Program-made: the position numbers and the translations under genes
Notes under the pieces: generated by a model
The model's database searches: none
What the model saw: only the letters and a program-made list of their open reading frames with translations
What the model was told of the DNA's origin: nothing
Origin: Chthoniobacter sp.
GTDB lineage: Bacteria > Verrucomicrobiota > Verrucomicrobiia > Chthoniobacterales > Chthoniobacteraceae
DNA: 63,408 bases
Assembly (NCBI GenBank): GCA_034667645.1
Contig: JAXDQV010000146.1
Span: 1-63,408 of the forward strand
Direction of reading: 5' to 3'
Shown here: positions 1,787 to 11,149 of the stretch, one piece after another
Numbering within the stretch: the stretch's first letter is position 1
How the letters are laid out: each line of letters begins with the position of its first letter

Positions 1787-2617
1787 ATGCCTCCAAAATC
1801 CGGCGCCGGAAAATCGTCTCAGAAAATCTCCCGCGGTTTCGGCTGGGTGCCCGACCTGCCCGACCAGCGCGATCACGCTTATGCCGCCCCGATGGCGAAA
1901 CTCGGAGCGCTCCCGCGTCGCGCCGACCTGCGGAAACTTTGTCCGCCGGTTTACAATCAGGGGCGCATCGGCTCCTGCACGGCGAACGCGATCGCCGCCG
2001 CCCTCGAGTTCGACCGCAAAAAACAGAGCCTCGCGGACTTCATCCCGTCGCGCCTTTTCATCTACTACAACGAGCGCGCCATGGAGCACACCATCGGCTC
2101 CGACGCCGGCGCGATGATCCGCGACGGAATCAAAAGCGTCGGCAAAAAAGGGGCGTGTCCGGAAACCGAGTGGCCTTACGACGACACGCCAGCAGACTCG
2201 ACCACGAGCCTTTGGCCCAAGGACGCGAAGCCTGCGCAGAAGCCGCCGAAGCCGTGCTACGACGACGCGAAGAAAGCCCGCGCGCTGAATTATCAGCGCG
2301 TCGATCGCACTCTCACGCAGATGAAAGGCTGCCTCGCGGACGGCTTTCCGTTCGTCTTCGGGTTCACGGTTTACGACAGCTTTGAAAGCGACGCCGTCGC
2401 CAAAACCGGGCTGCTGGAAATGCCTGCACCGGGCGAGGGGGTGGTGGGGGGGCACGCCGTTCTCTGCGTCGGCTACGACGATAAATCGCAACATTTTCAC
2501 GTGCGGAATTCCTGGGGCACGACGTGGGGGAAACGCGGCTATTTCACGATGCCTTACTCCTACCTGCTCGACGAAAACCTGTCCGACGATTTCTGGACGA
2601 TCCGGACGGTCGCCTAG
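1787..2617 (+). CDS. papain-family (C1) cysteine peptidase, no signal peptide
   Basis: QGRIGSCTANA (oxyanion Gln and catalytic Cys), GGHAVLCVGYD (His), NSWGTTWGKRGYF (Asn-Ser-Trp). Confidence 0.85.
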   Translation: MPPKSGAGKSSQKISRGFGWVPDLPDQRDHAYAAPMAKLGALPRRADLRKLCPPVYNQGRIGSCTANAIAAALEFDRKKQSLADFIPSRLFIYYNERAMEHTIGSDAGAMIRDGIKSVGKKGACPETEWPYDDTPADSTTSLWPKDAKPAQKPPKPCYDDAKKARALNYQRVDRTLTQMKGCLADGFPFVFGFTVYDSFESDAVAKTGLLEMPAPGEGVVGGHAVLCVGYDDKSQHFHVRNSWGTTWGKRGYFTMPYSYLLDENLSDDFWTIRTVA

Positions 2618-2626
2618 CCGTCATCC

Positions 2627-4000
2627 ATGCGAACACTCATCGTTCTGCATGGGTGGAGTGACAACGCGACTTCCTTCGAGCCACTGGCGGGCTGGCTGCG
2701 CGGGCAGGGCTTCGATGTCGTAGGCATCTGGCTCGGCGACTACCTCTCGATGAACGACGAGGTCAGTCTCTACGATCTCGGCAACGCGTTCCGGCGCGCG
2801 CTCGATTTCCACAAAATCCCGCAGGCGCGCCATAGCTTCGACTTGATCACGCACAGCACGGGCGGACTCGTGGCGCGAGAGTATTTGCGGCAGAGCTGTG
2901 TGGATGAAAACGGCGAGCCCGATGCCGTGCGCGCGCCGATCGCGCATCTCTGCATGCTCGCGCCGGCGAACTTTGGCTCGCCGCTGGCGAATCTCGGCAA
3001 GTCCGTCATCGGCCGCTTTTTCAAGGGCTGGGACTGGAACCATTTCGCGGAGTCCGGCAAGCAGGTGCTCGATGCGCTGGAGCTCGCCGCGCCTTATTCC
3101 TTCTGGCTTGGCGTCGATGATCTGTTCCGCGCCGGCTATCGCATTTTCGCGCCGGAGAATACCTTCACGACTGTGATGGTCGGCACGATCAGCTATCCCG
3201 GCATCAAGTCCGTGATGCATGAAAACGGGAGTGACGGCACGGTCCGCGTTTCCACCGCGAATCTGAACGCCACTTACCTCTCGGTTGATTTTGCCGACGC
3301 GAATGCATCGCCGAAGCCGGTCGCCAAACCGCGCGTGAACCCGGATATCGCGTTCGCCGTCTTCCATCGCAATCACGGCAGCATTACCAAAGCCGTTCCG
3401 GACAAGGACTCCCCCGAGCTCGCGCAGGTCGAGAGCTGGCAGAAAACGCTGCTCGATGCGTTGCGGCTGGAGCCGGGTGATTACTCGACGCACGCCGCGC
3501 GGTGCTCAGCGATCACAGACCAGACCTTTGTCGAAGGCCGGCAAGGACCGAATCCAGACTGGTATCATCGCTACCAGCACGTGGTTTTCCGCGTGCACGA
3601 TCAGTTTGGAAATTCCATCCCGGACTACGTTATCGAGTTTTATCAGCAGGATCGGGACGACGACGACCGGGTCATGGAATTCATCCACAAAGAGATCGTC
3701 GAGAAAGTTCACACCAACGCCATCGATCATGGCTACCGCAGCTTTCTGATCGATACCGACGACTTGATCGAGTTTATCGATAAACACGACGCCGAAGTCT
3801 GCATGAGCATCACGGCTGCCCACGTCTCGCGCCGGATCCGTTATCGCAATCCCGAGCACGGCTTCCGCGTTTTCACCAAGACAAATCGCGGCATGCTCCA
3901 CCCGAACGAACCGATCCTGGTGAACATCACGCTTTATCGCGACCCGGACGTCGAGAATCCCGACCCGGCCCTGAACGTCTTCCGCCTTCTCCCTGCATGA
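2627..4000 (+). CDS. alpha/beta-hydrolase (lipase/esterase-like) with a C-terminal domain of unknown function
   Basis: LIVLHGWSDN... and nucleophile elbow LITHSTGGLV. No signal peptide. Stop overlaps the next start (ATGA at 3997..4000). Confidence 0.7.
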   Translation: MRTLIVLHGWSDNATSFEPLAGWLRGQGFDVVGIWLGDYLSMNDEVSLYDLGNAFRRALDFHKIPQARHSFDLITHSTGGLVAREYLRQSCVDENGEPDAVRAPIAHLCMLAPANFGSPLANLGKSVIGRFFKGWDWNHFAESGKQVLDALELAAPYSFWLGVDDLFRAGYRIFAPENTFTTVMVGTISYPGIKSVMHENGSDGTVRVSTANLNATYLSVDFADANASPKPVAKPRVNPDIAFAVFHRNHGSITKAVPDKDSPELAQVESWQKTLLDALRLEPGDYSTHAARCSAITDQTFVEGRQGPNPDWYHRYQHVVFRVHDQFGNSIPDYVIEFYQQDRDDDDRVMEFIHKEIVEKVHTNAIDHGYRSFLIDTDDLIEFIDKHDAEVCMSITAAHVSRRIRYRNPEHGFRVFTKTNRGMLHPNEPILVNITLYRDPDVENPDPALNVFRLLPA

Positions 4001-9982: not shown

Positions 9983-10009
9983 CGCGCTCCGCTTTCACCC
10001 CTGACGGTC

Positions 10010-11149
10010 ATGCCTAAAAAAATCATCATTTGTGCGGACGGCACTTGGAACTCGGAAAACGCGACCGACAAGGGAAGGCCCTGCCCGACCAACGTCGTCA
10101 AAGTCGCGCGCGCCGTTTTGCCAGTGGCGGCCGATGGCACGCACCAGGTCGTGTTTTACCACTCGGGAGTCGGCACGAACTTCGGGCAGCGCGTCGTCGG
10201 CGGCGCATTCGGAGCGGGGCTTTTTGAGAACGTGCTCGATTGCTACCGCTTCCTCACTCTCAATTTCCATCCCGGCGACGTGCTTTATCTCTTCGGGTTC
10301 AGTCGCGGGGCCTTCACCGTGCGGAGCCTCGCCGGTCTCATCCGCAACTCCGGGATTCTGATGCGCGGCCACGAACACGCGGAGCGGCAGGCCGTCGAGC
10401 TTTACCGCGACTATTCCGACCGGACGAGCCCGGATTCGGAGCTCGCGCGCCAGTTTCGGGCCGAGCATTGCCATCCCGATCTCGACATCCATTTCATCGG
10501 AGTCTGGGACACCGTCGGCGCGCTGGGAATCCCCGGCTTGACCGGCCGTTTCCGGCTGCCGGGCGGCAACGACTGGCAGTTTCACGATGTCGGGCTCAGC
10601 CGGAAAACGAAGAACGCCTTCCACGCGCTCGCGATTCACGAGCATCGCAAGGAGTTCCTGCCGACGCTTTGGGCGCAAAAACCTGACGCAGATCCAAATG
10701 AACAAACGCTCGAGCAGGTCTGGTTTCCCGGCGTTCACTCCGATGTGGGCGGCGGCTACCCCGATTCCGATCTCGCGGACGTGCCGCTGCTCTGGATGAT
10801 CGGGAAGGCGAAAACGTGCGGCCTGGAATTCGATGAAAGCCTCGTCTCGAAAGTTGTCGGCAACGTGCTCGCCACGGGTCACGACGCCTTCAGTTTCCTT
10901 TTCAAAGTCATCGATTTTCTCGGCGGTCAGCCCGACGGCGCCTTTCGGAGTTTTGGCGCGACGGGGCGTCCAACCTGGGAGGATCTGCACCTCGGGGCGA
11001 TCCAGCGCTTTCACGAAATGGATCCCACCGACCCGTGGCCGAATAATTTCGCGGACGAGATCGAGCGCCGCAAATGGCCGTTGGAAACCGGAAGTGCGAG
11101 CGCGGCGGCCGCGGCAGAGTCGCCCGAGAAATCGGCGCTCGGAGGCTAA
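10010..11149 (+). CDS. DUF2235-family alpha/beta-hydrolase (Tle1-like phospholipase fold)
   Basis: IIICADGTWN N-terminus and GFSRGAFTVRSLAGLI nucleophile elbow, then IGVWDTVGALG, characteristic of DUF2235. Confidence 0.8.
   Translation: MPKKIIICADGTWNSENATDKGRPCPTNVVKVARAVLPVAADGTHQVVFYHSGVGTNFGQRVVGGAFGAGLFENVLDCYRFLTLNFHPGDVLYLFGFSRGAFTVRSLAGLIRNSGILMRGHEHAERQAVELYRDYSDRTSPDSELARQFRAEHCHPDLDIHFIGVWDTVGALGIPGLTGRFRLPGGNDWQFHDVGLSRKTKNAFHALAIHEHRKEFLPTLWAQKPDADPNEQTLEQVWFPGVHSDVGGGYPDSDLADVPLLWMIGKAKTCGLEFDESLVSKVVGNVLATGHDAFSFLFKVIDFLGGQPDGAFRSFGATGRPTWEDLHLGAIQRFHEMDPTDPWPNNFADEIERRKWPLETGSASAAAAAESPEKSALGG

Follow-up and report, generated by a model that had tools for sequence, protein, structure and literature searches.

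How do lytic enzymes that mostly lack export signals come to be encoded side by side with envelope proteins, and by what route would they reach their targets? The question is raised by eight tightly packed plus-strand open reading frames (ORFs; g1 to g8 in order) at positions 1787-11149 of a 63,408-nucleotide (nt) stretch of Chthoniobacter sp. DNA (assembly GCA_034667645.1, contig JAXDQV010000146.1), hereafter the window, which together encode six hydrolases and two envelope proteins. In soil, Chthoniobacterales and 'Udaeobacter' rank among the most abundant bacteria, and hardly any have been brought into culture. Judging from sequence comparison, our best reading is that the cluster represents a mosaic type of lytic-enzyme island recurrent in soil Chthoniobacterales, in which one or two conserved envelope proteins (of the g3 and g5 types) would be accompanied by a shuffled set of hydrolases, mostly signal-less. 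An earlier note, made from the sequence of this stretch alone, had proposed a battery of effectors with cognate protectors or, alternatively, a regulated lytic enzyme cocktail, and it is the latter that fits the comparative data well: the cluster is more structured than chance and had been partly misread as cognate effector-immunity pairs. The features on which the argument draws are the following.

1787-2617, plus strand: g1, papain-family C1 cysteine peptidase (Pfam PF00112, 5e-15; PHROG peptidase, 5e-18)
2627-4000, plus strand: g2, PlaB-family phospholipase A with an alpha/beta-hydrolase N-terminal domain and a PlaB-type C-terminal domain, no signal peptide
3997-4800, plus strand: g3, all-alpha lipoprotein of 267 amino acids (aa) with lipobox LLTGC (invariant Cys) and a Gly/Thr-rich hydrophobic helix pair
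4804-5208, plus strand: g4 N-terminal domain of about 135 aa; this rare module occurs only ahead of peptidoglycan-degrading domains
5179-5400, plus strand: g4 (P-x)n linker, about 74 residues and 50% proline, read from sequence; the source of low-complexity matches
5401-6006, plus strand: g4 C-terminal domain, a putative GH24/pesticin-like muramidase (EFEG...GVGYD motif; weak Pesticin match)
6008-7432, plus strand: g5, signal-peptide membrane protein of 474 aa with a periplasmic beta-sandwich, five transmembrane (TM) helices and a cytoplasmic coiled-coil hairpin
7492-8643, plus strand: g6, papain-fold cysteine peptidase (C70/AvrRpt2-like, C39-like; Pfam Peptidase_C70 and C39_2), no signal peptide
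8660-9982, plus strand: g7, probable lipoprotein carrying a Ser-Asp-His triad of the alpha/beta-hydrolase type; a start at 8624 instead would overlap g6
10010-11149, plus strand: g8, DUF2235/Tle1-like phospholipase catalytic domain (Pfam PF09994, T6SS_Tle1-like_cat, 6.7e-85), no signal peptide
966-1598, minus strand: NarL/LuxR-type response regulator (receiver plus GerE helix-turn-helix), divergent from the cluster (Pfam Response_reg 3e-22, GerE 1e-18)

That the eight ORFs are truly coding is supported by a strong GC bias at third codon positions (GC3 of 0.72-0.79), the codon-position pattern of real genes. Spacing is tight (9 nt between g1 and g2, 3 nt between g3 and g4, 59 nt between g5 and g6, 27 nt between g7 and g8) and g2 and g3 share an unambiguous 4-nt ATGA overlap at 3997-4000. 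For g5, starts at 5975, 5999 (an 8-nt overlap with g4) and 6008 are available, the last being preferred on the basis of homologue alignments (MNSRL...) and of the database gene call (474 aa); as it falls 1 nt past the g4 stop, g4 and g5 closely abut rather than overlap. For g7 the candidates are 8624 (a 20-nt overlap with g6) and 8660 (MMRLPSF, a 16-nt gap), and the latter is favoured because homologue alignments begin only at residue 13-18. Scanning positions 900-11600 for terminator-like sites returned 13, against 12.6 expected in shuffled sequence, and scans for internal promoters and terminators yielded nothing above the shuffled expectation. ORFs, gaps and GC3 thus bear out the description of eight packed same-strand genes in the earlier note, while its claim that the only overlaps are enzyme-to-envelope junctions stands for g2/g3 and is uncertain for g4/g5 and g6/g7, where it depends on the choice of start. 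All the motifs that it named were found at the expected places.

The absence of signal peptides from five of the enzymes (g1, g2, g4, g6 and g8) was likewise upheld: their N-termini lack a hydrophobic segment, and no upstream extension of the reading frames is possible. Profile searches with each of the eight proteins placed g1, g2, g6 and g8 in families, gave a sub-threshold assignment for g4 and returned no Pfam match for g3, g5 and g7; the NCBIfam search yielded zero matches for all eight. By sequence, g1, g2, g6 and g8 are fresh members of known families (C1, PlaB, C70-like and DUF2235, respectively), and g4 is a putative GH24-like one. An all-against-all BLAST of the eight proteins did not find a shared trafficking domain, its sole signals being low-complexity PxP matches and a weak similarity between the hydrolase cores of g2 and g7 (E 0.01).

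For g2, formerly described as a lipase-like alpha/beta-hydrolase with a THSTG motif, that description is correct and can be narrowed to a PlaB homologue. A phmmer comparison with Legionella pneumophila PlaB (PDB 6zth) gave E 1.8e-27 over residues 4-338, with the envelope extending to 467, and tblastn gave 96% coverage against annotated PlaB of Legionella lytica. THSTG (aa 75-79), an Asp (GSDGTV) and a His (NHGS) align with PlaB S85, D203 and H251, respectively (D203 is Asn in the crystallised mutant). Both proteins share the two-domain architecture, the unusual THSTG nucleophile motif, the Ser/Asp/His triad and the lack of an export signal; they differ in that g2 is only about 27-30% identical to PlaB and that its operon also encodes further lytic enzymes and a lipoprotein translationally coupled to it. 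Legionella PlaB is without export signal, lipid anchor or TM helix, yet it is found at the outer membrane and cell surface, even in Escherichia coli, and inside the cell it forms an inactive NAD(H)-bound tetramer (bioRxiv 10.1101/2020.09.01.246603).

Two further hydrolases, g7 and g8, lie at the end of the cluster. The g8 match to PF09994 (285 bits) covers profile positions 1-285 of 287, with GFSRG at aa 96-100, and g8 consists of the catalytic domain alone, without the extension associated with the type VI secretion system (T6SS). In g7, GHSFGG, NPASD, NHGD and the lipobox Cys are invariant across seven homologues, in the canonical Ser-Asp-His order, and sequence and profile searches of Pfam and PDB returned no match. 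The two lipoboxes reported earlier fare differently: that of g3 (LLTGC) stands, while g7, for all the invariance of its Cys, has an atypical lipobox (LTGGC) in the window copy.

Among the peptidases, g1 scores 56.5 bits against PF00112 (cut-off 20.7) and carries QGRIGSC (aa 59-65), GGHAV and NSWG; it has neither a signal peptide nor an I29 prodomain and its mature domain begins at about residue 43, so the classical secreted zymogen organisation is not seen. The Peptidase_C70 match of g6 reaches 24.0 bits (cut-off 19) and that to C39_2 9.5e-5, with predicted catalytic Cys and His in QSNWCW and GGGHF. The papain fold makes up its N-terminal half, and only this half matches genes annotated as 'papain-like cysteine protease family' on actinobacterial and rhizobial plasmids; the C-terminal ~190 aa have no family assignment, and a sequence search of PDB with g6 returned no match.

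The muramidase assignment of g4, a putative one, relies on the EFEG...GVGYD motif and on relatives of its C-terminal domain. The Pesticin match itself is weak (E 0.005, 17.3 bits, below the cut-off of 25.8), as is that to a PHROG endolysin (E 0.0095), and the domain is 50-52% identical to homologues named GH24 lysozyme by JGI, which in turn match Pesticin or Phage_lysozyme weakly. An exhaustive phmmer search of 1.84e9 representatives with the N-terminal domain returned 10 matches, about 7 of them genuine, whose C-terminal partners are a pesticin/GH24-like lysozyme, a lysozyme with CHAP and PG_binding_1, or an unassigned domain. Like its homologues, g4 begins with this N-terminal domain, at residue 1-5 and without a signal.

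Comparison with other genomes was anchored on g5 (80 species-representative genome loci and 80 metagenome loci; individual loci carry L numbers), with context samples of three extra g3 loci (L172-L174), three other g4-family loci (L090, L091 and L172) and nine distinct close g5 loci. The eight-gene set is repeated in none of the 80 + 80 loci. The arrangement of the window is seen again only on two identical metagenome fragments (L001 and L002), which carry g4-g8 or g7-g8, and synteny of the whole operon was rejected. The synteny proposed earlier thus fails for the eight genes together, while subsets of them do recur: g3 with a protein bearing the g4 N-terminal domain and g8, g7 with g5, and g5 with g1.

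Homologues of g3 head related hydrolase clusters in L172, L173 and L174, each time with other enzymes. The closest (L172, 68% identity) is followed after a 6-nt gap by a protein with the g4 N-terminal domain and a different C-terminal domain, and then by a Tle1-like gene 61% identical to g8. L173 has, after its g3-like gene, M15_4, a 291-aa protein, a phospholipase-C-type (PLC) phosphoesterase and a GH75-like protein; in L174, which also has a divergent GerE regulator, the g3-like gene overlaps a patatin gene, after which come three small ORFs and then a fusion of a GH75-like domain with PG_binding_1 and M15_4. Given that the enzymes vary in this way (patatin, M15, PLC, or the g4 N-terminal domain protein plus Tle1-like), g3 appears to be a shared component rather than a specific antidote.

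A similar picture holds around g5, where six of the nine distinct close loci (≥62% identity) have same-strand lipases, peptidoglycan hydrolases or peptidases within a few genes, mostly without signal peptides. Locus L087 (g5 homologue ~75% identical) contains a divergent GerE regulator and, in this order, a 690-aa C1 peptidase, lipoproteins and VanY-like, GH75-like, g5-like and patatin-like genes. Elsewhere, an Amidase_2-PG_binding_1 gene lies 8 nt upstream of the g5-like gene (L003), Lipase_3 and GH75-like genes occur in order ahead of it (L009), M15_4-PG_binding_1 precedes and a patatin-like gene follows it (L131), or it is followed by a GH75-like gene and then a C1 peptidase (L081). C1 peptidases are thus found near g5 homologues in L081 (54% identity to g1) and L087, and in at least 10 loci the gene directly ahead of a g5 homologue is a g7 homologue. 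Taken across islands, the hydrolases fall into classes directed at membrane lipid (PlaB, Tle1-like, patatin, lipase_3, PLC), peptidoglycan (GH24/pesticin-like, M15/VanY, Amidase_2, CHAP) and protein (C1 and C70 peptidases).

The recurrent GH75-like domain (~220 aa) bears only a weak resemblance to Pfam GH75 (chitosanase). Beside g5 or g3 homologues it stands alone in L009 (4896-5570), L081 (11525-12214), L087 (8691-9359) and L173 (14721-15446), and the fused form in L174 spans 14937-16550. Two further genes, L003 8110-9993 (Amidase_2) and L131 220-1923, share a BLAST cluster with it via other regions and are not matched by the hidden Markov model (HMM) of the domain; this HMM, built from the related clusters, found no copy in the window. 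Conflict-type genes are also frequent neighbours of loci with g3 or close g5 homologues: a 1455-aa TIR-CHAT-TPR-AAA protein (L173, 20116-20678), WD40-caspase and kinase-TPR proteins (L088, 5963-16066), and a large TPR protein with a GH25 lysozyme and a 'GT4-conflict' glycosyltransferase (L089, 3017-7334).

What, then, are the two envelope proteins? Only 24 homologues of g3 were found among 5.8e9 proteins. Its AlphaFold2 (AF2) model is a bundle of about nine helices, one of them the signal peptide, with a predicted local distance difference test (pLDDT) score of 69.5; Foldseek searches of PDB and BFVD gave nothing at E<0.1, and Pfam, PDB and phage matches were also absent. The best viral fold match in BFVD, an r1t-type holin at E 0.38, is not significant, and a likeness of g3 to this holin or to alpha-pore-forming toxins was rejected on that ground. 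Residues 93-130 form a Gly/Thr-rich, glycine-zipper-like stretch, FGGSVLATGLGTAGTLSGDLVVKTTLSALVTAI, and in L172 a Gly-zipper_YMGG lipoprotein gene lies directly upstream of the g3 homologue.

By comparison g5 belongs to a large family, with more than 1900 homologues, mostly in Verrucomicrobia and Acidobacteria and strongly conserved. The protein has a cleavable-looking signal (AFSQA followed by ES) and five predicted TM helices, and no match in Pfam, NCBIfam or PDB. Structure prediction, which the earlier note had advised for domains of this cluster, gave models for g3 and g5 but no significant structural neighbour for either: for g5 (AF2 pLDDT 72) the best Foldseek match in PDB has E 0.03, TM-scores stay below 0.25 for both proteins, and a pentameric ligand-gated channel topology was rejected because the resemblance is not significant. 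Within the sequence a 2-TM unit is duplicated (...QMAFWFF...LGLIGISA... and ...FHRFQIF...LGLLGISA...), and across Verrucomicrobia and Acidobacteria the TM core hardly varies. Independently of the cluster, the g5 family is a candidate for a new family of membrane proteins.

A remote g5 homologue of 682 aa is carried by Rhizobium ruizarguesonis plasmid pRlX4 (L175, 560-12210), matching g5 in architecture apart from the coiled coil, which here comes after TM1 as an insertion, and it sits among LysM-M23, DUF2272-SH3 (SH3_3), M15 and DUF3616 genes; cell-wall hydrolases may hence accompany the g5 module in Proteobacteria too. A Ralstonia match to the g5 C-terminus was set aside as uninformative, being an insertion sequence-truncated fragment beside a type 1 secretion system.

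How would such products leave the cell? Type 10 secretion systems (T10SS) and lysis cassettes free cocktails of signal-less toxins and hydrolases by regulator-controlled lysis of a subpopulation (PMC10847048, PMC10101115). By analogy, at the system level the locus is most like a T10SS or colicin-type release locus, although it falls short of membership, as no holin or spanin was found. With T10SS loci (Serratia ChiWXYZ; Tc toxin release in Yersinia entomophaga) it has in common a regulator-controlled arrangement of a signal-less putative peptidoglycan hydrolase (g4) beside signal-less cargo (g1, g2, g6 and g8), and a lipoprotein and a membrane protein adjoining that hydrolase. It differs in lacking a small holin (1-4 TM) and a recognisable i- or o-spanin, the cluster having no small TM ORF in its gaps of at most 59 nt; in g5 being a 474-aa signal-peptide protein with a beta-sandwich ectodomain, from a widespread non-phage family; in the absence of phage relatives of g3, the g4 N-terminal domain and g5; and in the interleaving of cargo and lysis genes in one operon.

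Colicin-type release relies on a lysis lipoprotein of ~30 residues and on activation of phospholipase A. The likeness here is one of analogy only: the locus encodes a lipoprotein and phospholipase(s) together with signal-less attack enzymes under one regulator, and quasi-lysis would, by that analogy, account for the missing secretion system. Here, however, g3 is a helical protein of 267 aa rather than a ~30-residue lysis peptide, and neither a colicin-like translocation or receptor domain nor an SOS box or the immunity gene pattern is present.

A prophage or lysis-cassette origin was rejected, since PHROG matches are confined to a peptidase and a weak endolysin and phage relatives of g3, the g4 N-terminal domain and g5 are lacking: tblastn of these three against 50,697 phage records gave 0 matches, and relatives of g3 or g5 were not found in IMG/VR.

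We put forward tentatively, as a possibility short of an even chance, that the locus encodes a regulated envelope-lytic enzyme cocktail whose members reach their targets without a dedicated secretion system, by a PlaB-like or a lysis-mediated, T10SS-like route. The divergent NarL-type regulator, whose position and class are confirmed by Pfam and which has no adjacent histidine kinase, would turn the operon on under a particular condition; divergent GerE-type response regulators occur in three cases including the window, the others being L087 and L174. The cytoplasmic enzymes might be made in a latent state, for which the inactive NAD(H)-bound PlaB tetramer is a precedent. They would then get to the envelope or the outside without a dedicated machine, either by a PlaB-like route to the outer membrane or through lysis of a fraction of the producers by muramidase and phospholipase, as in type 10 secretion or colicin-type release; with the PlaB route and T10SS/lysis-cassette release as precedents, the missing secretion machinery is less puzzling.

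The conserved placement of a g4 N-terminal domain protein after g3, together with the rigid (PX)n spacer, leads us to speculate that g4 is held by its N-terminal domain, possibly on g3, and that the rod gives the muramidase reach to the peptidoglycan. In the same scheme g3, g5 and g7 would be envelope partners common to the enzymes, serving to dock or activate them or to protect the producer in a generic way, and not one-to-one immunity proteins. A bolder version, which we consider unlikely, makes g3 and g5 the core of an undescribed envelope apparatus that exports, docks or activates interchangeable signal-less lytic enzymes, with the g4 N-terminal domain as recognition module. If true, this apparatus would be a new release route for lytic enzymes in diderm soil bacteria and could explain how PlaB-type phospholipases reach the outer membrane; limited full-text searches of the literature turned up no description of this combination of genes, nor of the g3 or g5 family.

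Several observations weigh against the cocktail. The cluster holds no holin-sized protein and no recognisable spanin, and g5, at 474 aa, is unlike any holin; by sequence, g3 and g5 have no phage relatives, and the viral fold search, run on g3 alone, gave nothing better than the r1t-type holin. The regulators of L087 and L174 are only ~27% identical to that of the window and not orthologous, g3 and g5 occur together only in the window, and the context sample is small (three extra g3 loci and nine distinct close g5 loci). The g5 family is mostly found in housekeeping neighbourhoods (MurI, ValRS, YjbR, BrxC): a glutamate racemase-like gene is the divergent neighbour in 25 loci and ValRS lies downstream in 21, mostly in verrucomicrobial genomes, where these two usually bracket g5, while in Acidobacteria BrxC-like and DUF971-like genes flank g5. 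In addition, several related clusters share a neighbourhood (Moa, TMEM164, MjaV, RibBA) and differ in content, which is the signature of a hot spot, and g5 may be a conserved chromosomal landmark beside such a variable region rather than a functional partner.

As for the flanks themselves, an MjaV (PF27324) gene borders three related clusters (L003 7373-8017, L087 2708-3472 and L174 694-1302), accompanied by RibBA (L087, L174) or by Moa/TMEM164 genes (L003, L087), which indicates a chromosomal hot spot shared in this clade; this flank is absent from the window.

The same genes have been read as an antibacterial battery, in which a T6SS or other contact-dependent system encoded elsewhere would deliver the signal-less enzymes as effectors, and g3, g5 and g7 would be periplasmic or membrane immunity proteins against their upstream neighbours. 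Phospholipases and muramidases are indeed typical T6SS effector classes (Tle and Tge families), g8 matches the Tle1-like catalytic domain over its full length, envelope proteins with export signals abut enzymes (the ATGA overlap of g2/g3; the 1-nt gap of g4/g5), and the g4 N-terminal domain is modular ahead of differing peptidoglycan-degrading domains, as in polymorphic toxins. The DUF2235 domain of g8, a lysozyme-fold enzyme and neighbours with periplasmic targeting signals also recall the T6SS pairs Tle1-Tli1 and Tge-Tgi. However, the same two families do not stay adjacent across genomes, and the effector and cognate-protector claim was not sustained: PlaB-like g2 adjoins a g3 homologue in none of the three other g3 loci (L172-L174), g5 adjoins a g4-family gene in none of the three other g4-family loci (L090, L091, L172), and in ~170 g5 loci the one g4-like sequence is a 72-residue fragment on the opposite strand, ~4 kb off (L140). 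Homologues of g5 remain 65-78% identical while the neighbouring enzymes change completely, and a family so large, conserved and mostly of housekeeping context is unlike a fast-evolving cognate immunity protein; of the supposed antidotes, g7 is itself an enzyme, and g3 and g5 are conserved shared components. The earlier statement that no carrier or secretion machinery lies nearby holds across the 63-kb window, where we found no T6SS or other secretion genes, carrier domains, mobile-element genes, or PAAR, VgrG, Hcp, MIX, Rhs or adaptor genes, and no linkage of g8 (again, a catalytic domain alone) to any of VgrG, Hcp, PAAR, an adaptor or a cognate Tli gene. By the linkage examined in the window this is not a T6SS effector-immunity locus, and we regard the battery as quite unlikely. 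Five signal-less enzymes that all act from inside would suit a different proposal, self-directed programmed lysis or abortive infection, whereby suicide enzymes dismantle the producer's envelope after a stress or phage signal relayed by the response regulator. In every g3 cluster seen, a membrane-attacking enzyme is accompanied by a peptidoglycan hydrolase or a g4 N-terminal domain protein, and conflict-type genes lie near related loci (TIR-CHAT-TPR in L173; caspase-WD40 and kinase-TPR in L088; TPR, GH25 and GT4-conflict in L089). Yet PADLOC defence models gave no meaningful match for any of the eight proteins, a result on which a known anti-phage defence system was rejected; the enzymes come without a coupled NTPase or sensor, a response regulator of the two-component type would be an unusual trigger for abortive infection, and g7 and the PLC of L173 carry export signals, which points to part of the kit being made for the periplasm or exterior. 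Suicide is, in our judgement, distinctly improbable.

It is also conceivable, if unlikely, that there is no functional unit at all and that a recombination hot spot beside core genes such as g5 has gathered unrelated hydrolase genes in one orientation, each with its own role. The eight-gene set is unique to this genome, related clusters of differing content lie at a recurrent site by Moa, TMEM164 and MjaV genes, and g5 relatives are mostly in housekeeping contexts, all as a hot spot would have it; if it is merely that, the locus is of modest interest. Against it stand the very tight spacing with one translational overlap, the terminator-like sites not above shuffled sequence, and the co-recurrence of the same hydrolase classes and of rare families (g3, the g4 N-terminal domain, GH75-like) in varied order and lineages, remotely even in Rhizobium. 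Envelope maintenance or remodelling, finally, would take g5, the lipoprotein hydrolase g7 and nearby peptidoglycan enzymes as a turnover module to which the other enzymes are add-ons. The adjacency of g7 and then g5 in at least 10 loci, the opposite-strand glutamate racemase-like neighbour of g5 in 25 verrucomicrobial loci and the strong conservation of g5 agree with this, but it leaves the signal-less papain-like peptidases, the PlaB-type haemolytic phospholipase and the Tle1-like lipase unexplained, and content varies strongly among close relatives; we hold it to be very improbable.

If the mosaic lytic-enzyme island is the right reading, a modular kit of phospholipases, cell-wall hydrolases, peptidases and two uncharacterised envelope proteins would give a handle on competition, scavenging and lysis in Chthoniobacterales, and the cluster would also be a source of new lytic enzymes. 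A PlaB homologue translationally coupled to a lipoprotein and near a conserved membrane protein offers candidates for the PlaB export route, an open question in Legionella.

Outside the cluster, the window consists of ordinary chromosomal sequence (EngA, HflX, BamA, ABC sugar transport, Pup ligase and others), with no tRNA or Rfam element anywhere in it. Just beyond the cluster, a minus-strand ORF (11471-13582) encodes a 703-aa Gly/Ser/Ala/Thr-rich protein without a Pfam match that ends in a PEP-CTERM-like tail, VPETSTGILVLGGAGILFARRRLLRN, and further on (17015-18049, minus strand) a trypsin-like peptidase carries a PEP-CTERM motif; these two PEP-CTERM-type proteins suggest an exosortase-dependent surface-protein repertoire adjoining the hydrolase cluster. 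GC content falls to 0.50-0.53 at 25-28 kb, compared with ~0.60 elsewhere in the window, positive GC skew is unusually strong (0.14-0.16) at 27-30 kb, and a run of small minus-strand ORFs without family matches occupies ~25000-30000, a low-GC region that may be horizontally acquired DNA. Downstream of it lie a CHASE2-adenylate/guanylate cyclase (39711-41885, plus strand) and the Pup-ligase family protein (PF03136, 7e-170; 54965-56473, plus strand).

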